A stretch of 64,000 bases of DNA from the NCBI RefSeq assembly GCF_001899205.1, contig NZ_MKVL01000010.1, positions 117,166 through 181,165 on the forward strand. The letters run 5' to 3'. The DNA is from Mesorhizobium sp. 65-26 (GTDB taxonomy: Bacteria; Pseudomonadota; Alphaproteobacteria; Rhizobiales; Rhizobiaceae). The notes below the pieces were generated by a model that worked only from the letters and a program-made list of their open reading frames with translations, was not told the origin of the DNA and searched no databases. Both the position numbers and the translations under genes were made by a program. Of the stretch, positions 54,490-64,000 are shown in pieces; the first letter of the stretch is position 1, and every line of letters starts with the position of its first letter.

Positions 54490-55212
54490 ATGAACAGGAC
54501 GACTTCCGGCAAGCCTTCCAGCCGATCCGCCGGACGCGGCGGGGGCATGACGCTGAGCGAGGCGCACGTGGCGCGCACGCTGCGCGAGGTGGCCGATGCC
54601 GGGCCGACGCCCGGTATGGTTCACATGGTCGACGCCGACTATGTCCGCATCCGCGACGAGATACTGGCCGCGGCGCCGCCCGGCCCGCTGAAGCTGTTCG
54701 CCTATGGTTCGCTGCTGTGGAAACCGGCGGCGGAGGTGAGGGGCGGCGAGCGCGTGGTGGCGGCCGGCTGGCACCGCGCCTTCTGCTTCAGTGTCCTGCG
54801 CTATCGCGGCACGGTGGAGCGGCCGGGCCTGATGATGGCGCTCGACCGGGGCGGCCAGTGCCAGGGCATGGTGTTCGAGATCGCCGAGCCGGTGGCGGCC
54901 AATCTCGAGGCGCTGCTGCGGCGCGAGATGACGATCCTGCCGCCGGTCAACGTGCCGCGCTGGCTGCATGTGCGCGGCGCCGGCGGCGCCATGCGGGCGC
55001 TGGGCTTCGTCGTCGATCCGGCCAATCCGCGTTATGTCGGCAAGCTCCCGAAGCGCGCGGTGGCGGCGACGCTCGCCACCGCCGTGGGCCACTGGGGATC
55101 TGGCGCGCAGTATCTCTATGAGACCATCCGGCACCTCGACGCCTGCGGCATCCGCGACCGCAACCTGTGGGAATTGCAGGCGATGGTGGCCGAAGCGATC
55201 GAGGCCGGTTGA
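54490..55212 (+). CDS. chaC: Gamma-glutamylcyclotransferase, ChaC family
   Basis: LFAYGSLLWKP, GWHRAFC, RYRGTVERPGLMMALDRGG.C.G, LLRREM, G..AQYLYET. Confidence 0.9.
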   Translation: MNRTTSGKPSSRSAGRGGGMTLSEAHVARTLREVADAGPTPGMVHMVDADYVRIRDEILAAAPPGPLKLFAYGSLLWKPAAEVRGGERVVAAGWHRAFCFSVLRYRGTVERPGLMMALDRGGQCQGMVFEIAEPVAANLEALLRREMTILPPVNVPRWLHVRGAGGAMRALGFVVDPANPRYVGKLPKRAVAATLATAVGHWGSGAQYLYETIRHLDACGIRDRNLWELQAMVAEAIEAG

Positions 55213-55228
55213 GACGGGGGGTAGCCGC

Positions 55229-57238
55229 ATGACCGATTTCCACCTCGTCGAGGCATCCATCGCGGCGACGCGGCAGGCTCTGGAGGAAGGTGTCGTCACC
55301 AGTGTCGAACTGGTGGCCGCGTGCCTGAGGCGCATCGGCTTCTACGACCGTCAAGGCATTGCGCTCAATGCCGTTCCCGTGCTGAACCCCGCCATGTTCG
55401 AGGAGGCGCTGGCCTCGGACCTGCGGCGCCGCGAGGGCAGGGCGCTGGGACCTCTCGACGGCATCCCCTACACGGCCAAGGATAGCTACAAGGCGAAGGG
55501 CCTTACCGTCGCCGCCGGTTCGCCGGCCTTCGAGCATCTGGTCGCTGGCGGTGATGCCTTCACCATCGCCCGGCTGCGGGCGGCCGGCGCGGTGCTGATC
55601 GGGCTCACCAACATGTCGCCCATGGCCAATGGCGGCATGCAGCGCGGCGTCTACGGCCGCGCCGAAAGTCCCTACAACGGCGACTGGCTGACCGCCGCCT
55701 TCGGCTCCGGCTCGTCGAACGGTTCGGGCACGGCGACGGCCGCGTCCTTCGCCGTCTTCGGGCTGGGCGAGGAGACATGGTCGTCCGGCCGGGCACCGGC
55801 CTCCAACAACGCGCTGGTCGCCTACACGCCGTCGCGCGGCGTGATCTCGGTGCGTGGCAACTGGCCCCTCGTGCCGACCATGGATGTGGTCGTGCCGCAC
55901 ACACGCAGCGTCGCCGATATGCTGGAACTGCTCGATGTCATCGTCGCCGACGATCCGGACACGCGCGGCGACTTCTGGCGGAGCCAGCCCTGGGTGCCAA
56001 TCCCCAAGGCCTCCTCGTTGCGGCCGTCGAGCTACGCTGAGCTGGAACTGGACGGCGCGCTTGCCGGCAAGCGGCTTGGCGTGCCGAAGATGTATATCGG
56101 GCGCGACGCCGGCTCGGCGCGGCCGATCGAAACCCGTGCTTCGGTGCTGGCGCTGTGGCGGCAGGCTGCGCGCGATCTGGAAGCGCTCGGCGCCGAGGTC
56201 GTCGAGGTCGATTTTCCCGTGGTCTCGAATTACGAGCGCGACCGGCCGGGCACGCGCTCGATGGTCGATCGGGGGCTGGTGCCGGCCGAATTCGCGGAGC
56301 GCGAACTCTGGGATCTGTCGATCTGGGCCTGGGACGATTTCCTGCGCGCCAACGGCGATCCGGCGATCCCCGATCTCGCCTCGGTCGACGGCGTGAAGAT
56401 CTTCCCGCCGCCGCCAGGCGCCCTGCCGGACCGCTACGGCGCCGACGATCTCGACCTCGCCGACTATGTGGCGCGCGCCAGGCAAGGCGTCGTGCCGCTG
56501 GAGCGGATCCCGGCGATCGAGGACGGCATCAGGGGGCTGGAGGCGACGCGGCGCATCGATTTCGAGGAATGGCTCGAGGCAAGCGGGCTCGACGCGGTGG
56601 TGCTGCCGGCCGTCGCCGATGTCGGCCCGGCCGACGCCGACGTCAACGAGGCCTCGGCCGATCTTGCCTGGCGCAACGGCACATGGGTGGCCAACGGCAA
56701 TCTGGTCTGGCGCCATCTCGGCATCCCGACCGTGACGGTGCCGATGGGCACGATGGCCGATATCGGCATGCCGGTCGGCCTCACCTTCGCCGGCAAGGCC
56801 CATGATGATACGGCGCTGCTGCGCATGGCGGGCCACTACGAGCGGCACACTGGGCGACGCACCCAGCCGCCGCGCACGCCCGAACTGCCTGGCGATGTCT
56901 TTGCCGCGAGGGCCGGGACATCGCAGGCCCAAGAGGGTGACGTGCCCGACGTCCGGCTGAGCGCCGGAACGACGCACCGGGGCGGCGAGGACGAAATCCT
57001 GGTCATACTCCAAGTCAAGCCTGCGGGCGGGCAGGTGGCCGTGCATGTCAACGGCATCCCGTTGGCGGTGCATGACGCGGGCGGACGCCTCGAAGGGCGG
57101 ATTTCGGTCCCGGCTTCGACCCATCAAGGTGTTCACAGCACCTGGCGAGGCGCCTACGGCTCGATCGTCACCGCGGTGGCGCGGCTGCCGGGTGGGCTGG
57201 CAGCTGGAGCTTACGTCGTTACCGGAGGGATCGGATGA
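55229..57238 (+). CDS. Amidase signature family protein with ~110-aa C-terminal extension
   Basis: LDGIPYTAKD (Lys), GSGSSNGSG (cis-Ser), LGEETWSSGRAPAS (nucleophile Ser), PVGLTFAG. Confidence 0.92.
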   Translation: MTDFHLVEASIAATRQALEEGVVTSVELVAACLRRIGFYDRQGIALNAVPVLNPAMFEEALASDLRRREGRALGPLDGIPYTAKDSYKAKGLTVAAGSPAFEHLVAGGDAFTIARLRAAGAVLIGLTNMSPMANGGMQRGVYGRAESPYNGDWLTAAFGSGSSNGSGTATAASFAVFGLGEETWSSGRAPASNNALVAYTPSRGVISVRGNWPLVPTMDVVVPHTRSVADMLELLDVIVADDPDTRGDFWRSQPWVPIPKASSLRPSSYAELELDGALAGKRLGVPKMYIGRDAGSARPIETRASVLALWRQAARDLEALGAEVVEVDFPVVSNYERDRPGTRSMVDRGLVPAEFAERELWDLSIWAWDDFLRANGDPAIPDLASVDGVKIFPPPPGALPDRYGADDLDLADYVARARQGVVPLERIPAIEDGIRGLEATRRIDFEEWLEASGLDAVVLPAVADVGPADADVNEASADLAWRNGTWVANGNLVWRHLGIPTVTVPMGTMADIGMPVGLTFAGKAHDDTALLRMAGHYERHTGRRTQPPRTPELPGDVFAARAGTSQAQEGDVPDVRLSAGTTHRGGEDEILVILQVKPAGGQVAVHVNGIPLAVHDAGGRLEGRISVPASTHQGVHSTWRGAYGSIVTAVARLPGGLAAGAYVVTGGIG

Positions 57239-57325: not shown

Positions 57326-58396
57326 TCAGAGTGCCGTGCCGCGCTCGCTGTCGAAGATGTGCAGTGCCTCGGGTGGGAAGGAGAGCCGCAGCCGGTCGCC
57401 ATCACGGGCGGCGAAGTCGGCCTTGACGATGGCGAGCAGGTCGCTTCCGGCCGCCTCCACCACCAGATGTGTCTGCGGGCCGGTGGGCTCGGCGACCTTC
57501 AGCGTTCCCGCCAGCGTGCCGCTCTCGCGCTCCACCACGATGCTCTCCGGGCGCACGCCGAGCGTCACCTTGCCCGTCTTCGAAGCGAGGGGCCGGGCGG
57601 GCAGCGCGATCTCGGTGCCGTCGGACAGTTCGGCCTTCTGGCCCGAACCGGTGTCCTTCAACCTGGCCTCGATGAAGTTCATCGAGGGCGAGCCGATGAA
57701 GCCGGCGACGAACAGGTTCGCGGGCCTGTTGTAGAGTTCCAGCGGCGAGCCCACCTGCTCGATCGTGCCGCGGTTGAGCACGACGATGCGGTCGGCCAGC
57801 GTCATCGCCTCGATCTGGTCGTGCGTGACGTAGACGGCGGTGGTCTTGACGCGGTGGTGCAGCAGCTTGATCTCGCCGCGCATCTGCACACGCAGCTTGG
57901 CGTCGAGATTGCTGAGTGGTTCATCGAACAGGAAGACCGAGGGATTGCGCACGATGGCGCGGCCCATGGCGACGCGCTGGCGCTGGCCGCCGGAAAGCTG
58001 GCCCGGCCGACGTTCCAGCAGATCGACCAGGTCGAGCATGCGCGCGGCTTCCTCGACGCGCCTGGCGATCTCCTGCTTGTCCTTGCCGGAGAGCTTCAGG
58101 TTGAAAGCCATGTTCTGCGCCACCGTCATGTGCGGGTACAGCGCATAGCTCTGGAAGACCATGGCGACGTTGCGGTCGCGCGGGCTGTCGTCGTTGACGA
58201 CCTTGCCGTCGAGCAGGATGTCGCCGCGCGTCGCGTTCTCCAGCCCCGAGATGATGCGCAGCAGCGTCGACTTTCCGCAGCCTGAGGGGCCGACCAGGGC
58301 GACGAACTCGCCATCGGCGATGTCGAGGTCGATACCCTTGATGATGTTCGCCGCGCCGAAGGACTTCTCGACGCCACGCAACTGTATGGATGCCAT
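57326..58396 (-). CDS. CUT1 ABC transporter ATP-binding protein (MalK/UgpC-like)
   Basis: [46 protein letters not shown]. Confidence 0.97.
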
Positions 58397-58416
58397 GCTC
58401 AGCCTCCTGTCATATC

Positions 58417-58434
58417 CGGATCGCCGGCGATCCG
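58417..58434. promoter_or_regulatory. Perfect 18-bp palindrome CGGATCGCCGGCGATCCG
   Basis: Seen directly, ~20 bp upstream of the MalK-like start inside the operon spacer. Confidence 0.5.
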
Positions 58435-58553
58435 ATGCCGTGCGCTGTGCTCCGAAACAGATTCAGGCACCGTGCGTTCGGCCTTGTTTTCGTGTTGTTT
58501 TCCCCTCGCGCACGCCCCCGGAGCGGATCCCGGGGGCGGCCCGCGGCAATGCC

Positions 58554-59390
58554 TCAGCCGCGCAGCGCGCGCACCGTGTCCATCAGCGCCTTGACCTTGC
58601 CGAGTACGACCTTGTCGCCATGCATCTTGCCATTGCCCTTGACGTAGCTGCCGACGATGGCGCCGTCGGCGACCGACAGGAGCTCGGCGGCGTTCTCGCT
58701 GCTGAAGCCGCTGCCGACCAGGATCGGCCCGACCGAGCCGGCGCGGATCTGCTTGACCTCGGAGGGGGCGGTGGCGTGGCCCGTGCGGGTGCCGGTGGCG
58801 ATCAGCACTTCGGCGCCGAAGAACTCGACGTCGCGCGCCTGGTCCTCGATGTCGCGGTCGCCGACGATGGCGTGGCTGCCATGCTTCACGTGGACGTCGG
58901 CCAGCACCACGATGTCCTCGCCGTCGAGCGCGCGGCGATAGCGCATGGCCTGCGAGGCCGCGCCTTCGACGATGCCCTCATTGGCGACATAGGCGTTGGC
59001 CCACTGGTTGACGCGCACGAACTGCGCGCCCGAGCTCTTGGCGCAGGCGAGCGAGGCCTTGGCGGCGTTGGCGACGATGTTGAAGCCGAGCGGCAGCTTC
59101 GTGGCCCGGCGCACGCGGTCGCCGATCACCGACATGCCGCCGATGGTCTCGAAGCCGATGTCGTCGGGCTTGAGGAAGGGAATGTCGCCGGCGTTCTCCA
59201 GAAGGATGCCGTCGACGCCGCCTTCCTCGAGGATCAGCGCTTCCTCCACCGCCTGCTCGTAGACCTGCGCGAGCGAGCCGTTGCGGTAATAGGGCGAGCC
59301 GGGCAGGGGCAGCACATGCACCATGCCGATGATCGGCTTGCTCGTACCGAACAGACGCTCCAGCACGGGCTTACTCTCGCGGGTAGTCAT
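58554..59390 (-). CDS. BtpA/SgcQ family protein (TIM barrel)
   Basis: KPIIGMVHVLPLPGSP, DGILLENAGDIPF, ADVHVKHGSHA, LIATGTRTG, DGAIVGS. Confidence 0.92.
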   Translation of the reverse strand: MTTRESKPVLERLFGTSKPIIGMVHVLPLPGSPYYRNGSLAQVYEQAVEEALILEEGGVDGILLENAGDIPFLKPDDIGFETIGGMSVIGDRVRRATKLPLGFNIVANAAKASLACAKSSGAQFVRVNQWANAYVANEGIVEGAASQAMRYRRALDGEDIVVLADVHVKHGSHAIVGDRDIEDQARDVEFFGAEVLIATGTRTGHATAPSEVKQIRAGSVGPILVGSGFSSENAAELLSVADGAIVGSYVKGNGKMHGDKVVLGKVKALMDTVRALRG

Positions 59391-59414
59391 TATGATCTCC
59401 TTGTTTTTCTTAGC

Positions 59415-60200
59415 TTATTGATCGATGCGCCAGATGCGGGCGGCGTTCTTCCAGAAGACCTTCTCGAGGTCCTCGTCGCTGAGCCCGATGACGCGCAGCT
59501 TTTCCTGCTCGACGCGCGGCGATTGGTAGGGGACGTCGGAGCCGTATTGCAGCCGGTCAACCGAGACGTTCTTGACGAAGGTCATGATGTCGAAGGGGTA
59601 GGCCTGCGACATGTCGACGTTGATGTTGGGATATTCCTGGCAGGCGAGGATCGCCTCCCAGAGGAAGGCGTGCATGCCGATATGGGCGAGCACGAAGGTG
59701 ACGTTCGGATAGGCCTTGGCGGCCTGCGCCTGAAGGTAGGGCAGGTCGCGCGGGGCATCGCCCGAATGCATCAGCACGGTGAGGTTGTGCTCCTCGGCCT
59801 TGTCGAGCAGTGGACCCATGACGCGCATGTCGTTGGGGCGGTAGAAGTCGTAGCCGGCGACCAGCTTGAGGCCGCGGCAGTTCCATTCGCCGACATAGCG
59901 GTCGATGAGCTGCTGGGTGTGCTCGGCGCCGAAGGTCGGGTCGATGCGGGCGACGCCGACGATACGGTCGGGATATTTCATGGCGGCGATGCCGACGTCG
60001 CCATTGGCCTCGTTGTAGTCGGCGTCCCAGGGGGGCGTCTGACGCCGGTCGTGCGGGAACAGGACGCCATGCGAGGCGCCCTGCTCGTCGAGCAGGCGGA
60101 TCACGCTGTCGGGCTCGCCCCGCACGAGGTAGGGAACGCAGGTGTTGGCGGCGACGTTCTTGTCGGTGCCGTAGTGCATGTGGGCGTCGATTATTCTCAC
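59415..60200 (-). CDS. Amidohydrolase_2 family metal-dependent hydrolase
   Basis: GTG start; IIDAHMHYG, GLKL, VLMHSG, VLAHIG, LQYGSDVP. Confidence 0.9.
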   Translation of the reverse strand: MRIIDAHMHYGTDKNVAANTCVPYLVRGEPDSVIRLLDEQGASHGVLFPHDRRQTPPWDADYNEANGDVGIAAMKYPDRIVGVARIDPTFGAEHTQQLIDRYVGEWNCRGLKLVAGYDFYRPNDMRVMGPLLDKAEEHNLTVLMHSGDAPRDLPYLQAQAAKAYPNVTFVLAHIGMHAFLWEAILACQEYPNINVDMSQAYPFDIMTFVKNVSVDRLQYGSDVPYQSPRVEQEKLRVIGLSDEDLEKVFWKNAARIWRIDQ

Positions 60201-61141
60201 AGCGAAAGCTTCCTTCCAAAATTGGCCTCGAACCGCTCCGCTACCTGGGCGAGGCTCGGCAGGTTGGTCTGGCAACCCCATTTCTCGATCACGAAACTGG
60301 CGACGGTGGCGCCGATGCGGGCGGCGGTCTCGTTGGACTGGCCGGCGATCAGGCCTTTCAGCGTGCCGGCGACGAAGGAGTCGCCCGCGCCGGTGGAATC
60401 GACGAAGGTGGCCGGCTTGACCGACGGCATGTCCTGGCGGCCGTCGTTGCTGTACCAGGCGCTGCCCTCGCCGCCGCGCGTCACCACCACCAGGCGCGGC
60501 CCGTGCGGCAGGATGTCGGCGGGAGAGGCGGCGCCGAGCGAGCGCATCAACTCGTCCGCCTCGCCGCGGCTGAGGAACAGGATGTCGGTGGCGGCGAGGA
60601 AGCGCGGTGCCAGCGCGCCAGCGGTCGCGACCATGCCGTTGATGGCGGTGAGCGCGCCGGTGCGGCGACCGTGCTCGATGGCATCGAGCGTATAGGGGCT
60701 GAAGGCCTCGCTGATGACGACGGCGCCGGAGCGCTCGATCTCCTCAAGCGGCGCGCGCCAGTCGTCCTGCTTCTCGGCGATGCCCAGATGCGAGACGCAG
60801 AAGCCGCCATTGGCGGCGTCGAAGAAGTTGAAGCTGTGGCCGGAGCGTTCGCCAGCCACCACCTCGACGCCGCCGAGATCGACGCCGTTGCGGATCATGT
60901 GATCGGCATAACCGGAACTGCGGAAGTCGTCGCCGACCACCATGCCGAGGCCGACCTTCATGCCGAGGGCGCCGGCGACGGCGGCGATGTTGGCGCTGCA
61001 GTCGCCGAAGTGAATGGCCTCCACCTCTTCCATGGGCATGTCCAGCGGCACGGTCTCGCCGTCGCGGGGCAGGCGCTTCATGCGCAGCAGGTGGTCGAAG
61101 ATGGTCCACGACCCGATGGAGAAAAGCTCGAGCGTCTTCAT
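60197..61141 (-). CDS. PfkB-family carbohydrate kinase
   Basis: GDCSANIA, VVVTRGGEGS, VDSTGAGDSF. Confidence 0.92.
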   Translation of the reverse strand: MKTLELFSIGSWTIFDHLLRMKRLPRDGETVPLDMPMEEVEAIHFGDCSANIAAVAGALGMKVGLGMVVGDDFRSSGYADHMIRNGVDLGGVEVVAGERSGHSFNFFDAANGGFCVSHLGIAEKQDDWRAPLEEIERSGAVVISEAFSPYTLDAIEHGRRTGALTAINGMVATAGALAPRFLAATDILFLSRGEADELMRSLGAASPADILPHGPRLVVVTRGGEGSAWYSNDGRQDMPSVKPATFVDSTGAGDSFVAGTLKGLIAGQSNETAARIGATVASFVIEKWGCQTNLPSLAQVAERFEANFGRKLSL

Positions 61142-62001
61142 TTGACGGCTCCCATGGTCAGGCCGCGGGTGATCTGTTTCTGGAAGAGGACGGCGGCCAC
61201 CATGCCGGGGAAGGCCGACACCATCGCCGAGGCCGCCATCACGCCCCACTTGATCTGGTCGAAGGTCATCGCCTGCAGGATGCCCATGGTGACCGGGCGC
61301 GTGCTGCCGCCGGCGAGCACGAGGCCGAAGATCATGTTGTTCCAGCTGAAGATGAAGGCGATCATCATCGCGCTAGCGATGCCGGGGCGGGCGATCGGCA
61401 CGACGATCGAGGTGAGAATGGTCCAGATGCCGGCGCCGTCGATGCGCGCGGCCTCCTCGATCTCGATCGGCATGTCGCGGAAGAAGGACGCCAGGATCAG
61501 GATGATCAGCGGCAGCGTGATCAGCTGGTGCACCAGGATCATGCCGGCATAGGTGTCGTAGAGGCCGATGCGGGTGTAGATCACATAGAGCGGCAGGATG
61601 ATGACCAGCTCCGGCGCGAAGCGGAACGACAGGAAGGTGAAGCGCAGCTTGTCGGACGTCTTGTCGCGACGCCTTGCCAGCGCGTAGGCGGCGGGGATGC
61701 CGATCAGCGCCGAAAGGAGTACCGCGCCACCGGAGATGATGACCGAGTTCATCAGGAACTTGATAAGGTCGGGCAGCTGGCCGCTCGCCCGTTCAGCCTC
61801 GCTGCCGAACAGCACTTCGGCATAGTTGGAGAGCGTCGGCGTGAACAGGAAACGCGGCGGATAGGCGATGATGTCGCCGAAGTTCTTGATCGACATCATG
61901 AAGATCCAGACCAGCGGGAACAGCACGAAGCCGGCGAAGGCGACATAGCAGAGGAAAAGCCCGAGCCTGCCGGGCAGGGCGCGAAGGGTCTTAGAGGCCA
62001 C
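61138..62001 (-). CDS. CUT1 ABC transporter permease
   Basis: NSVIIS, IPAAYAL, EIEEAARIDGA, FIFSWN. Confidence 0.95.
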   Translation of the reverse strand: MASKTLRALPGRLGLFLCYVAFAGFVLFPLVWIFMMSIKNFGDIIAYPPRFLFTPTLSNYAEVLFGSEAERASGQLPDLIKFLMNSVIISGGAVLLSALIGIPAAYALARRRDKTSDKLRFTFLSFRFAPELVIILPLYVIYTRIGLYDTYAGMILVHQLITLPLIILILASFFRDMPIEIEEAARIDGAGIWTILTSIVVPIARPGIASAMMIAFIFSWNNMIFGLVLAGGSTRPVTMGILQAMTFDQIKWGVMAASAMVSAFPGMVAAVLFQKQITRGLTMGAVK

Positions 62002-62896
62002 GGGTCTTGACCTCCTGCTTCTGCCAGAAGGACAGCAGCGCGCCGCTGATAGCGTAGCAGACCAGCCACAGTACGAAGACGATGGTCATCGCCTTGCCGA
62101 GGCTCGACCAGCGATAGGCTTCCTCATAGGCCATGACGTGCAGCGTGCGGGTGGCGTCCAGCGGCCCGCCCTTGGTGGTGGAATAGATGATCTCCAGCGA
62201 CTTCAGCGAGTCCGAGACGCGGAAAAGCGCCACCAGCAAAAGGTAGGGCGCCAGCAGCGGCAGCTTGACGTGGCGGATAATCTGCCAGGAATTGGCGCCA
62301 TCGATGCGCGCCGCCTCGACGATCTCGCCCGATACCGACTGCAGGCCGGCGAGCAGGATGATGGTGGCGAGCGGCGTGAACAGCCAGGTGTCGATGAGGA
62401 TGATGGAGGCCATGGCCGTGTGCGGGCTGGTGAGCCATGACAGCGGCTCGATGCCGACCTGCGCGAGCAGCCAGTTCAGCACGCCGCTCTGCGGGTGCAT
62501 CATCGTCTTCCAGATGAGGCCGGCGACGACCGGCGGTACCAGCAGCGGCAGCACCACGGCGGAGCGGAAGAAGGACTGCAGCCGGCCCGGCACGTCGAGC
62601 AGGATGGCGAAGGCGAGCCCCAGCGGAAGCTGGATGAAGAGAGCGGCGGCCGCGTAGGTCAGCGTGTTGGCGAGCCCGGTCCAGAACAGCGGCGTCTCGA
62701 ACAGCGTGATGTAGTTGCCGAGGCCGACGAACTTCGTGGCCGGCATGTAGAGCTTCTGGTTGGTCAGGCTGGTGTAGATGCCGCTGAGGAACGGATAGGT
62801 CGTCGACAGAAGCAGGGCGAGGGCGGGACCGAGCATGGCGTAGAACGCCGCTCTGGTCATCCAGCTCTTGTCCGGTTGCGCTGCTTGGCGGGCCAT
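61991..62896 (-). CDS. CUT1 ABC transporter permease
   Basis: FVGLGNY, LLAGLQSV..EIVEAARIDGA, TKGGP. Confidence 0.95.
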   Translation of the reverse strand: MARQAAQPDKSWMTRAAFYAMLGPALALLLSTTYPFLSGIYTSLTNQKLYMPATKFVGLGNYITLFETPLFWTGLANTLTYAAAALFIQLPLGLAFAILLDVPGRLQSFFRSAVVLPLLVPPVVAGLIWKTMMHPQSGVLNWLLAQVGIEPLSWLTSPHTAMASIILIDTWLFTPLATIILLAGLQSVSGEIVEAARIDGANSWQIIRHVKLPLLAPYLLLVALFRVSDSLKSLEIIYSTTKGGPLDATRTLHVMAYEEAYRWSSLGKAMTIVFVLWLVCYAISGALLSFWQKQEVKTRGL

Positions 62897-63022
62897 ATGA
62901 GGGTGTTTCTTGGCTTAGGGATCTGATGTCGGGCCGGTCGGTGATGGCGTTCCAGCGGAGGTGGGAGCCGGCCCTGGCGGTTCGATCTCGCCGCATTCGC
63001 GCGGCCGCAAAGGATCAGGCGG

Positions 63023-63055
63023 GCCGGGGCGGGGCGCGATTGCCCGCGCCCCGGC
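63023..63055 (-). terminator. GC-rich stem-loop after SBP gene
   Basis: GCCGGGGC.GGG...CCC.CGCCCCGGC imperfect inverted repeat immediately after the SBP stop. Confidence 0.5.
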
Positions 63056-63061
63056 TTGCCG

Positions 63062-64000
63062 TCATTCGTCCAGCATGCGCTGGATGTCGTCCTGTGCTTC
63101 GCACAGATTGGTCTTCACGTCGCCCTGACCGAAATAGGACTTCTGGATCGCCTCGGCCCAGCGGTCGAGCATGCGGGTCAGTTCGGGATGCGGCGGGAAG
63201 CGGATGGTGGCAACCTCCGCCTCGGTCTTGGCGGCTTCGATGTACTGGCCGGGCTTCTCGCCCCAGCTGTGCATCAGCTTGACCACGTCGGGCGAATCCC
63301 AGGCCGACTGGCGCACAGGGTTCATGTTGCCGGCGAGGTGCGTCTTGATCATCGTGTCCTTCGACGTCACCCACTGCATGAACAGCCAGGCGGCGTCCTT
63401 GTGCTTGGAAGCCGAGTTCATCGACAGCGACCAGATCCAGGCGGCCGCGGCGCGCTTGCCATCGGGACCGAGCGGGGTCGGCGCGTAGCCGACATCGCCG
63501 GCGATCGCCGACTGCTTGGGATCCTCATAGGTCGGCGCGAACAGGTTCGCCTCGTTGAGCGAGAAGACATACTGGCCCGACGCGAAACCCTGCATGGCCT
63601 CGTACCAGGTGAAGGCGCCGGCGCCTTCGGGCGAGGCCTTCTTGATCAGGGTGATGAAGTCGGTGGTGGCGGCGATGCTCTTGTCGGAGCAGATCTGCAG
63701 CTTGCCGTCCTTGTCGAGCATCTCGGCGCCGTAGGATTCCAGCATCGTGCCAAAGGTCAGGTAGGGCAGGTCCCAATAGCGGTCGAAGCGGGTGATGATG
63801 CCGTGCGTCTTGCCGTTGGGGCCGTCGAGCTTCAGCTTGTCGGCCATGGCCAGCAGGTCGGCATAGGTCTTTGGTACTTCGAGGCCGAGCTTCTTCAGCA
63901 TGCTTGGCCGATAGGCGAGCTGATAGGATTCGAAGTTGATCGGCAGCGTCCAGAGCGAACCCTCGCCGATACCCTTGAGCGGGGTGAGGTCCCAGCGGCC
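63062..64000 (-). CDS. CUT1 ABC transporter substrate-binding protein, 5' end outside window
   Basis: LWTLPINFESYQLAYRPSMLKKLGLEVPKTYADL, WIWSLSMN, AAWLFMQW; frame open to the window edge. Confidence 0.92.
   Translation of the reverse strand, partial: GRWDLTPLKGIGEGSLWTLPINFESYQLAYRPSMLKKLGLEVPKTYADLLAMADKLKLDGPNGKTHGIITRFDRYWDLPYLTFGTMLESYGAEMLDKDGKLQICSDKSIAATTDFITLIKKASPEGAGAFTWYEAMQGFASGQYVFSLNEANLFAPTYEDPKQSAIAGDVGYAPTPLGPDGKRAAAAWIWSLSMNSASKHKDAAWLFMQWVTSKDTMIKTHLAGNMNPVRQSAWDSPDVVKLMHSWGEKPGQYIEAAKTEAEVATIRFPPHPELTRMLDRWAEAIQKSYFGQGDVKTNLCEAQDDIQRMLDE

Follow-up and report, generated by a model that had tools for sequence, protein, structure and literature searches.

Several described sugar catabolic systems resemble, in part, a seven-gene locus found at the end of a 64,000-nt stretch of the Mesorhizobium sp. 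65-26 genome (hereafter the window). The frl operons (frlBONMD in B. subtilis, frlABCD in E. coli) share with it a CUT1 ABC importer and a PfkB kinase in one operon and, as proposed for the cassette, the later splitting of a phosphorylated sugar conjugate; in other phyla, both are frequently controlled by a GntR-type regulator. The SIS-domain deglycase FrlB is, however, absent here, and an Amidohydro_2 hydrolase and a BtpA/SgcQ protein stand in its place; no SIS deglycase of the kind that marks frl, fra and gfr systems (FrlB, FraB, GfrE/F) was found in the Mesorhizobium cassette or in 44 related loci. The NagK/NagA/NagB and NanK/NanE/NagA routes share the three-step logic, in which a kinase and an amidohydrolase-superfamily hydrolase are followed by an isomerase or epimerase that works on a sugar phosphate. 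However, NagK, NagA and NagB have no family-level homology to the three enzymes of the cassette, and NanE, although a fold neighbour of the BtpA protein, is no more similar to it than a dozen other barrels. In the ula pathway for L-ascorbate, a metal hydrolase opens a phosphorylated lactone and a phosphate-binding TIM barrel acts next, as would be the case here if the substrate were a lactone. The enzymes differ, UlaG being a metallo-beta-lactamase and UlaD a member of the OMPDC group; the cassette has neither family and also lacks the downstream epimerases.

Two systems without an assigned function also share parts of the cassette. The Salmonella rikA-stm3548-stm3549-stm3550 locus likewise encodes a PfkB kinase and a two-metal amidohydrolase-superfamily hydrolase, which serve a carbon source that was still unassigned in 2026 (PMC13432705). 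Rhizobial and Pantoea plasmid versions of this locus add a BtpA protein that is 48% identical to the one in the window and carries the same motifs. Unlike the cassette, rikA-type systems contain a PTE-related hydrolase (Rsp3690, Pmi1525 or PTER type) rather than Amidohydro_2, a GATase1_like protein, a CUT2 or DMT transporter and kinases only distantly related to the PfkB of the window. Neither a PTE-related hydrolase nor GATase1_like was found in the window, whereas both occurred in paralogous BtpA clusters on rhizobial plasmids. The E. coli sgcRAQCXBE operon shares a BtpA/SgcQ barrel (SgcQ) within a sugar uptake operon, but has a PTS, an RPE-like epimerase (SgcE) and an M42 hydrolase (SgcX), and contains neither PfkB nor Amidohydro_2. 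It was likewise without an assignment in 2026, and a deletion showed no phenotype when 190 carbon sources were tried (PMC13343008).

The Mesorhizobium genes all run in one direction on the minus strand (Table 1). The seven families listed in a preliminary description of this DNA were all matched in Pfam and NCBIfam: a CUT1 solute-binding protein (SBP), two permeases, PfkB, Amidohydro_2, BtpA/SgcQ and an ATPase of the UgpC/MalK type. No internal stops were present in any of the seven frames and GC3 was 0.89–0.93 in all genes, compared with an overall GC of 63–68%, which identifies them as real coding frames. Since the SBP gene extends 432 nt beyond the window end, the window carries only its C-terminal part (312 of 456 aa). 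Tightly spaced stops and starts had been described for the whole set. This held from permease 1 to BtpA, with permease 2 overlapping permease 1 by 11 nt, PfkB overlapping the permease 2 stop by 4 nt (ATGA), the hydrolase start overlapping the PfkB stop by 4 nt and BtpA beginning 24 nt past the hydrolase, but not for the SBP/permease and BtpA/ATPase junctions, with gaps of 165 and 157 nt, respectively. Each gap opened with a GC-rich hairpin. The hairpin after the SBP gene (−37 kcal/mol, z −4.2, with none of 200 shuffles equally stable) probably stabilises or attenuates the mRNA within the operon. The hairpin after BtpA (−35 kcal/mol) was marginal because its z was only −1.9. The seven genes are a real operon, predicted to import a sugar-like compound and to process it by means of its kinase, two-metal hydrolase and BtpA barrel enzyme.

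Table 1. Features of the Mesorhizobium locus, in window positions.
Feature	Position	Strand	Basis and remarks
SBP	63062–64432 (63062–64000 within the window)	−	Start and ribosome-binding site examined
GC-rich stem-loop, directly 3' of SBP stop codon	63031–63052	−	Folding
Permease 1	61991–62896	−	PF00528
Permease 2	61138–62001	−	PF00528
PfkB kinase	60197–61141	−	PF00294; begins with the ATG at 61141 and not with the start of the longest ORF
Amidohydro_2 hydrolase	59415–60200	−	PF04909; start is the GTG at 60200
BtpA/SgcQ	58554–59390	−	PF03437, TIGR00259
GC-rich stem-loop, 3' of BtpA stop, within the gap to the ATPase gene	58514–58537	−	Folding
ABC ATPase	57326–58396	−	PF00005, PF17912, PF08402

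The transporter was identified as a CUT1 carbohydrate ABC importer: its binding protein is of the SBP_bac_1 type, both permeases are BPD_transp_1 proteins, and the MalK/UgpC-type ATPase contains a TOBE domain. The periplasmic SBP matched PF01547 and PF13416 and had a signal-peptide-like N-terminus; its nearest solved relatives were 4rya (a sorbitol-type SBP, 2e-29), 5iai and MalE3. Permease 1 (301 aa) was MalF/UgpA-like, with NCBIfam matches under the equivalog cut-offs, and permease 2 (287 aa) was MalG/UgpE-like. The ATPase (356 aa) contained OB_MalK and TOBE_2 regulatory domains and passed the UgpC subfamily model NF008653 (494 vs. a cut-off of 432). It did not reach the cut-off of the MalK equivalog (438 vs. 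568). The ATPase gene was loosely attached, being missing from the cassette in many other phyla. A divergent SorC-type regulator gene was located directly outside the window, and an operator motif, TTGCA(A/C)-N4-GTGCAA, was present in 12 of 13 SorC-type loci and in the Mesorhizobium locus.

The kinase (314 aa) belonged to the PfkB family (PF00294, 132 bits) and retained both the TGAGD motif of the catalytic site and, near the N-terminus, the Asp with which ribokinases bind the sugar diol. It scored below all NCBIfam equivalog cut-offs, including those for ribokinase (TIGR02152, 91 vs. 300), fructoselysine 6-kinase (NF007321, 59 vs. 247) and KDG kinase (NF052444, 35 vs. 400). The best solved relative, in a full-length alignment, was the nucleoside kinase MJ0406 (2c49, 1.5e-24), followed by ribokinases. 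Identity to the rhizobial PfkB of rikA-type clusters (PTE-related/GATase1_like/PfkB) was approximately 28% over half its length. The hints at the sugar conflicted, with the SBP nearest to polyol and disaccharide binders and the kinase nearest to ribose and nucleoside kinases. The kinase gene adjoined an Amidohydro_2 orthologue in all 57 loci fetched from other genomes, an arrangement thus far from chance.

With its GTG start, the hydrolase was 261 aa long, like all orthologues, and matched PF04909 with 106 bits. It carried the full two-metal motif HxH/K/H/H/D (H7, H9, K112, H145, H173 and D222). These six residues were invariant in an alignment of 26 hydrolase sequences with identities down to 28%, and the motif was also invariant in relatives of 24–33% identity. 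In a structure model (pLDDT 94.7), the motif residues were placed at the ends of strands 1, 4, 5, 6 and 8; the nearest fold was 3cjp, an uncharacterised protein. The predicted site is that of a two-metal (subtype I) member of the amidohydrolase superfamily, in which strand 1 carries HxH, strand 4 Lys, strands 5 and 6 one His each and strand 8 Asp; as suggested by this motif, K112 is putatively carboxylated and the site putatively holds metal. ACMSD, LigW and LigI represent single-metal or metal-free Amidohydro_2 sites without a strand-4 lysine. The invariant K112 and H145 depart from such a site, and assignment as a decarboxylase, hydratase or LigI-type lactonase was rejected. The two-metal carboxylated-lysine motif favours hydrolysis of a lactone, lactam, ester or amide and disfavours a deaminase or decarboxylase. 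Of the two activities proposed earlier for this enzyme, a lactonase fits the motif, and the motif speaks against a deaminase.

The BtpA protein (278 aa) matched the BtpA/SgcQ family over its full length (PF03437, 224 bits vs. a cut-off of 30; TIGR00259, 216 vs. 153), was encoded by the sole BtpA gene in the Mesorhizobium genome and contained the subfamily motifs RVNQWANAYVANEG and ADVHVKHGSH. Its AlphaFold model (pLDDT 86) consisted of eight strand/helix units, forming a (beta/alpha)8 barrel. BtpA had no solved relative, and its profile similarity to solved proteins was limited to the phosphate-binding strands 6–8 (TrpA, CutC, HisF, HPS and GGGPS). The fold neighbours were all sugar-phosphate barrels (Z 16–20), including TrpF, HisF, NanE, KDPGal aldolase, HPS and KGPDC (Z 16.5 for KGPDC). 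Polar residues at the barrel strand ends were invariant. BtpA has the standard motif for phosphate binding on strands 6–8 and is predicted to bind a phosphate.

Genes for the SBP, two permeases, PfkB, Amidohydro_2 and BtpA occurred together at 44 loci, which were distributed over Alphaproteobacteria (Hyphomicrobiales, Rhodobacterales), Chloroflexi, Actinomycetota and Bacillota, with permuted gene order and regulators of four families (SorC, AraC, GntR and DeoR). In its content, the unit was counted nearly unaltered in five bacterial phyla. No dehydrogenase, aldolase or other enzyme travelled with the cassette across the compared loci. The hydrolase was 65–76% identical between Proteobacteria and Bacillota or Chloroflexi, and the cassette was detected in only 5 of 121 Mesorhizobium species genomes. 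The cassette behaves as a self-contained, mobile, horizontally spread module.

Natural swaps were observed in other loci. A BtpA of 34% identity was encoded with two Amidohydro_2 hydrolases, a mannose-family PTS and RpiR, without a kinase, which indicates that the Amidohydro_2/BtpA pair acts on a phosphosugar. On plasmids of Rhizobium, Agrobacterium, Pantoea and Shinella, the 48%-identical BtpA was accompanied by PfkB and a CUT2 ABC system, and the place of Amidohydro_2 was taken by a two-metal hydrolase of PTER-like type. In Chloroflexi, the hydrolase and PfkB were also found with an NMT1-type ABC system, and no BtpA turned up in five genomes of this kind; with an identity of only 46–51%, the hydrolase there may have another substrate. 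The replacement of the ABC system and kinase by a PTS, and of Amidohydro_2 by a PTER-like hydrolase, supports a route of import, phosphorylation, hydrolysis and conversion by BtpA. The placement of the hydrolase before BtpA is suggested by the presence/absence patterns of these genes.

We favour, with some confidence, a self-contained, horizontally spread catabolic cassette for a neutral sugar derivative, with BtpA as the last step. The compound would be imported by the CUT1 system, as expected from its family membership, and PfkB would phosphorylate a furanose- or ketose-like moiety at one of its primary hydroxyls. The carboxylated-lysine-bridged two-metal centre of Amidohydro_2 would then cleave an ester or amide bond in the phosphorylated intermediate, be it in a lactone or lactam ring, an O- or N-acyl group or another N-linked group. 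BtpA, with a His/Glu/Asp/Lys-rich and possibly metal-binding site, would isomerise or epimerise the non-standard sugar phosphate formed in this way, or cleave a C-C bond in it, to give a central metabolite. BtpA would be the final, funnelling step; the kinase/hydrolase pair also exists without it. The phosphorylated intermediate probably releases the SorC-type repressor from its operator. Central metabolism may be out of reach for the three enzymes without host enzymes. The sequence of events in the preliminary description agrees in outline with the conserved unit, the PTS swap and the phosphate motif of BtpA, and no paper in the literature consulted assigns the pathway or the BtpA family, in line with its claim of an undescribed pathway. 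Its suggestion of a sugar or nucleoside phosphate fits in the first part; a nucleoside is at best a weak candidate, since the transporter is of the CUT1 sugar/polyol type.

Several more specific substrates were considered. An N-substituted sugar (an amino-sugar derivative, a glycosylamide or an Amadori/Heyns-type compound) is possible, if doubtful: the kinase would esterify it, the hydrolase would remove or open the N-linked group as NagA and FraE do, and BtpA would yield a common sugar phosphate by an Amadori-type isomerisation or deamination (TrpF/HisA chemistry). The layout mirrors B. subtilis frlBONMD (CUT1 ABC, PfkB and GntR) and Salmonella gfr (mannose-family PTS), two uptake modes for glycated amines, and both CUT1 ABC and mannose-family PTS systems occur with Amidohydro_2/BtpA. 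TrpF and HisF were among the fold neighbours of BtpA; however, the fold list was flat, with both no closer than the aldolases. BtpA paralogue clusters were rich in amide hydrolases (GATase1_like, M20, isochorismatase-type, GGT and TenA), and the branch of the PTER-like replacement includes an N-acetyl amide hydrolase (PMC11374699). In contrast, the cassette itself contained no nitrogen-handling gene and no homologue of a SIS deglycase, NagA or NagB in Pfam and NCBIfam, and the fructoselysine kinase score given above was low. A phosphorylated sugar lactone of the gamma or delta type, such as a hexono- or pentono-lactone or an enediol lactone resembling ascorbate, appears unlikely. Here the ribokinase-like PfkB would phosphorylate the lactone, the two-metal hydrolase would open the ring and BtpA would decarboxylate, epimerise or cleave the phospho-acid, like UlaG and then UlaD. 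KDPGal aldolase, HPS and KGPDC were among the BtpA fold neighbours, but BtpA lacked a D-x-K-x-x-D type motif, which characterises the OMPDC/KGPDC group. A gamma-lactone resembles ribofuranose, in keeping with a kinase closest to ribose and nucleoside kinases; on the other hand, free lactones are unstable and unusual as CUT1 ligands, and the cassette contained neither a lactone-making dehydrogenase nor a dehydratase or epimerase to complete a sugar-acid route. Phospho-lactonase activity does exist among two-metal amidohydrolase-superfamily enzymes, as there are members without an established physiological role that hydrolyse pentono-1,4-lactone-5-phosphates (Korczynska 2014, as related in PMC10971088), and Rsp3690, a near match in family to the replacement hydrolase of the rhizobia, acts in vitro as a carboxylate esterase (PMC5341072).

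We regard as improbable a ribosyl or nucleoside-like substrate that is phosphorylated at O5', opened or freed of its base or aglycone by the hydrolase and rearranged by BtpA as a ribose-5-phosphate derivative. The similarity of the kinase to MJ0406 and ribokinases would fit, but the nearest relatives of the SBP bind polyols and disaccharides, and CUT1 transporters and mannose-family PTS are not known to import nucleosides. Nucleoside hydrolase genes flanked BtpA clusters in Kaistia and Palleronia, although in these two lineages only, and a tandem BtpA pair adjoined a PNP_UDP_1 phosphorylase. RikA of the paralogous PTER/GATase/PfkB module in Salmonella has weak ribose kinase activity, considered off-target by its authors (PMC13432705); the low, half-length identity of the window PfkB to its rhizobial counterparts speaks against this reading. 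It is very unlikely that BtpA is not an enzyme and instead helps to assemble the transporter, in the sense of its legacy database name ('membrane complex biogenesis protein, BtpA family'). The cyanobacterial founder BtpA is reportedly a photosystem I biogenesis factor, but the corresponding equivalog model (NF045918) scored 191.8 bits against a cut-off of 400, and the host is a heterotrophic Mesorhizobium. The conserved phosphate-binding motif and the invariant polar residues also argue against a non-enzymatic role, as does the company of BtpA, which accompanies kinases under CUT1, CUT2, PTS or no transporter and keeps its position when the transporter is swapped. Its recurrence across phyla makes the cassette one of the cleanest ways now at hand to learn what the BtpA/SgcQ family does.

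All families named in the preliminary description were recovered in a single minus-strand chain, comprising SBP_bac_1, two copies of BPD_transp_1, PfkB, Amidohydro_2, BtpA and an ABC_tran ATPase with OB_MalK and TOBE_2 domains. Gene starts were set from an alignment of orthologues and from ribosome-binding sites. The overlapping or nearly overlapping junctions described for the whole chain were found for part of it: three junctions overlapped (−11, −4 and −4 nt) and one was spaced by 24 nt, but two contained gaps of 165 and 157 nt. A GC-rich hairpin opened each of the two large gaps. The hairpin after the SBP gene was clearly non-random in folding (−37 kcal/mol, z −4.2), and a scan for promoter and terminator consensus sequences gave no signal above background. 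The G+C content of the region was 63–68%, with many spurious ORFs, and GC3 was 0.89–0.93 in 7/7 cassette genes. The cassette BtpA shared 94% identity with a protein of M. loti. Its gene was the only BtpA gene in this genome.

Features of the cassette and its upstream region (window coordinates; L002 is the stretch of the home genome that holds the whole SBP gene)
Feature	Position	Strand	Remarks
SBP	63062-64432	-	crosses the window end; full gene taken from the genome (L002:8228-9598)
permease 1	61991-62896	-	
permease 2	61138-62001	-	
PfkB	60197-61141	-	
Amidohydro_2	59415-60200	-	GTG start, 261 aa
BtpA	58554-59390	-	
ATPase	57326-58396	-	
operator-like motif	L002:9660-9687 (window-equivalent ~64494-64521)		just beyond the window, in the 99-nt SorC/SBP gap

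A SorC-type regulator gene (PF04198) was located divergently upstream of the SBP gene, just beyond the window. The motif TGTGCA-N6-TTGCA(A/C)-N3-4-GTGCAA was common to the SorC/SBP intergenic regions of this locus and of 12 of 13 SorC-type loci that span several genera, including Mesorhizobium, Kaistia and Taklimakanibacter, and some SorC-type loci contained the perfect palindrome TTGCAC-AAAA-GTGCAA. The motif is a candidate operator. A functional tie of the cassette to the neighbouring amidase or to an ectoine-like cluster was rejected, since these neighbours were not conserved in other loci. The convergent amidase gene (window 54968-57238, plus strand) matched NF005127 with 920 bits. Its longest ORF encoded 756 aa, of which only residues 90–640 matched the profile, so the true start is probably later; a C-terminal extension of approximately 115 aa lies beyond the profile match.

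The same gene set accompanied BtpA relatives of 58–72% identity in an alphaproteobacterium, in Paenibacillus and on uncultured Bacillota-like contigs. Species-representative genomes were scanned with the hydrolase alignment, yielding 57 orthologous loci, of which the ORFs were clustered and the clusters labelled by Pfam. An SBP, two permeases, PfkB, Amidohydro_2 and BtpA occurred together in 44 of the 57 loci, with the ATPase present or absent; a few loci are cut short by contig ends, so that the set is only partly visible there. The carriers were Mesorhizobium, Kaistia, Bosea, Bauldia, Taklimakanibacter, many Paracoccaceae, Anaerolineae, Actinomycetota, Paenibacillus and rumen or gut Clostridia. 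Regulator type varied with lineage (SorC in Hyphomicrobiales, AraC in Rhodobacterales, GntR in Chloroflexi, Actinomycetota and some Bacillota, DeoR in Paenibacillus), as did the positions of the BtpA and SBP genes. No further enzyme travelled with the cassette among the loci compared. Identity of the hydrolase across phyla was 65–76%, followed by a sharp fall to approximately 33% for the next relatives, a pattern that marks a single isofunctional group. Only 5 of 121 Mesorhizobium species genomes carried the cassette, which is therefore accessory in this genus. The cassette is thus a conserved, mobile unit; the PLSDB plasmid collection contained no orthologue of the hydrolase. Cultured carriers were Mesorhizobium, Bauldia litoralis, Taklimakanibacter albus and Paenibacillus lentus. 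On Kaistia-type contigs, a GH172 glycosidase gene (L003:767-1897) was the last gene of a distinct ABC operon immediately upstream of the cassette's SorC regulator, and the cassette was followed by an NMT1-type ABC system and by a nucleoside hydrolase gene; these surroundings may reflect chance or a functional neighbourhood.

In alignments reaching down to 28% identity (A2 and A3), residues D5, H7, H9, K112, H145, H173 and D222 of the hydrolase were invariant. They were placed at the ends of strands 1, 4, 5, 6 and 8 in the structural model (pLDDT 94.7), and the predicted active site is of the canonical two-metal type, bridged by a carboxylated lysine. Such a site is common to phosphotriesterase (PTE), dihydroorotase, hydantoinases and PTE-like lactonases, and is not known from the characterised Amidohydro_2 decarboxylases and hydratases, from LigI lactonases or from single-metal deaminases. 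A decarboxylase or hydratase of the Amidohydro_2 type was rejected in view of the invariant strand-4 lysine and strand-5 histidine, and the deaminase put forward as one option in the preliminary description was also rejected, because it would need another type of metal site. The nearest fold was that of 3cjp, an uncharacterised protein. Sequence searches of solved structures matched 3nur and 3cjp only, both weakly, and a search of the ESM Atlas with the hydrolase returned generic names only. Given the two-metal motif, we read the hydrolase as cutting an ester or amide bond, either cyclic or acyl. Distant Amidohydro_2 relatives were often encoded as tandem pairs (L094:826-2336, on a metagenome contig, and many of loci L069–L091). 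In the one pair that was aligned, from L094, the metal motif was kept in one copy and lost in the other, which suggests a heteromer of a catalytic and a non-catalytic subunit.

PF03437 (BtpA/SgcQ) is a large family of bacteria, archaea and cyanobacteria, still annotated after a photosystem phenotype from the 1990s; to our knowledge, neither a structure nor a reaction has been determined for any member. Sequence searches likewise yielded no solved BtpA structure, and the match of the family profile to solved proteins was limited to the phosphate-binding strands 6–8 (a TrpA-type segment). The model of the cassette BtpA (pLDDT 86) was a barrel of eight strands, in which a mobile hairpin follows strand 4. 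Its fold neighbours (Foldseek, VIA-align) were a flat list of sugar-phosphate barrels with Z of 16–20, headed by KDPGal aldolase (20.0), MfnF (19.6) and HPS (19.3) and also including ThiE, TenI, CutC, HisF, GGGPS, NanE, KGPDC and TrpF. Since none stood out, fold did not select a mechanism; the modelled fold indicates binding of a phosphate ester and nothing beyond that. In the closer sample of relatives (alignment A4), H25, E65-N66, D69, R126, D165, K169 and the glycine-rich phosphate loops were invariant or nearly so. In the divergent set (A5), N66, D69, R126 and glycine and proline positions alone were invariant, and H25 nearly so. A subfamily including the cassette protein had the additional RVNQWANAYVANEG, R150-Y-R152 and ADVHVKHGSH, and its histidine-rich residues could bind a metal. 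A role of BtpA as a transporter chaperone was considered and rejected. Longer BtpA proteins contained no informative fused domain, except for a single fusion with LMWPc and a single case that is probably a mis-join of PfkB and BtpA. On a short metagenome contig, a tandem BtpA pair with a 4-nt overlap (L093:20-1587) adjoined a PNP_UDP_1 nucleoside phosphorylase gene.

Clusters in which single components were replaced or missing bear on the order of the pathway. A gene for a BtpA of 34% identity was located, on metagenome contigs L094 and L095, downstream of two Amidohydro_2 genes, one with the full and one with a degenerate metal motif, upstream of a complete mannose-family PTS and beside an RpiR gene; these clusters contained no kinase. 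A PTS hands over its sugar already phosphorylated, and the hydrolase/BtpA pair would therefore act on a phosphosugar. In 13 Chloroflexi loci (L056–L068), genes for an ATPase, a permease, an NMT1-type SBP, Amidohydro_2 (46–51% identical) and PfkB occurred with no BtpA gene near the hydrolase and PfkB genes, and five of these genomes yielded none at all. We therefore read the kinase/hydrolase pair as the core and BtpA as a downstream addition. The Chloroflexi variant operon was often located beside DAO, M19 dipeptidase, SDR and Opp-type transporter genes. In Thermus and on a Brucella plasmid, a more divergent BtpA was encoded with an FGGY kinase, an SDR and a CUT1 ABC system, and no hydrolase. 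This type was without E65, D165 and K169 and probably has a different activity.

BtpA proteins of 47–51% identity with the same subfamily motifs were encoded on plasmids of Rhizobium leguminosarum, Agrobacterium vitis, Pantoea and Shinella (the plasmid clusters read were L096, L097, L098, L102 and L103, from Rhizobium, Pantoea, Agrobacterium vitis, Shinella and Palleronia). In the first four of these genera the order was LacI, CUT2 ABC system, PTE-related hydrolase, GATase1_like, PfkB and BtpA, after which came TenA or an M20 enzyme. The Palleronia cluster had the same set, with PfkB neither annotated nor detected in the stretch read. The hydrolase of these clusters matched Rsp3690 (3k2g, 7e-178), mammalian PTER (2.5e-68) and Pmi1525 (1.7e-65). 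PTER is an N-acetyltaurine amidohydrolase (PMC11374699), and Rsp3690 and Pmi1525 have esterase activity in vitro (PMC5341072). The place of Amidohydro_2 next to PfkB and BtpA is thus taken by a second, non-homologous two-metal hydrolase. The trio of PfkB, GATase1_like and PTE corresponds to the Salmonella rikA-stm3548-stm3550 locus, to which the plasmid clusters add BtpA and an ABC importer. [quoted passage not shown]

The clues to the substrate are in conflict. The nearest relatives of the SBP were a sorbitol-type binder, 5iai and MalE3. PfkB aligned over its full length with the MJ0406 nucleoside kinase and with ribokinases, and scored below the cut-off of every equivalog model. Some BtpA clusters were flanked by nucleoside hydrolase or phosphorylase genes, and amide-cutting enzymes were frequent in paralogous BtpA clusters. 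Among the candidate substrates, we slightly prefer an N-linked or acylated sugar over a phosphorylated lactone and place a riboside third.

The arrangement described initially was confirmed, and its interpretation as import, phosphorylation, hydrolysis and a BtpA step is supported in outline. The components of the cassette are of ordinary kinds (ABC importer, PfkB kinase, metal hydrolase and TIM barrel), and, as a catabolic operon for a sugar derivative, it is not categorically new. It corresponds to none of the pathways described, and two of its enzyme groups are orphans. Searches of the available literature for BtpA/SgcQ by name and by Pfam, TIGR and COG number, and with kinase or TIM-barrel, returned no functional assignment, as did a search for papers naming PF04909 together with PF00294. 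For the sgc operon of E. coli, a 2026 study stated that substrate and biochemistry 'remain to be established' and found no phenotype of sgc deletions on 190 carbon sources (PMC13343008). We tentatively propose, as a possibility we would not yet favour, that the RVNQWANAY/HVKHGSH subfamily of BtpA is a new, possibly metal-dependent, sugar-phosphate enzyme closing a hitherto undescribed catabolic route of three steps for a widespread, unrecognised sugar conjugate, with Amidohydro_2 and the non-homologous PTER-like hydrolases, and CUT1, CUT2 and PTS uptake, all feeding the same BtpA substrate. If true, this would be the first reaction for PF03437, the family of E. coli SgcQ and cyanobacterial BtpA, and the orphan rikA locus of Salmonella would be explained as well.

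The value of the cassette is that it offers a tractable route to the BtpA question. It is a clean experimental handle because it combines a single transporter with a screenable SBP, three enzymes, one BtpA gene in this genome, a regulator with a recognisable candidate operator and cultured carriers. The identity of the ligand would define a new catabolic pathway and assign the divergent two-metal branch of Amidohydro_2. It would probably also clarify the orphan PTER-like/RikA locus of enterobacteria, and would supply a starting hypothesis for E. coli sgc.
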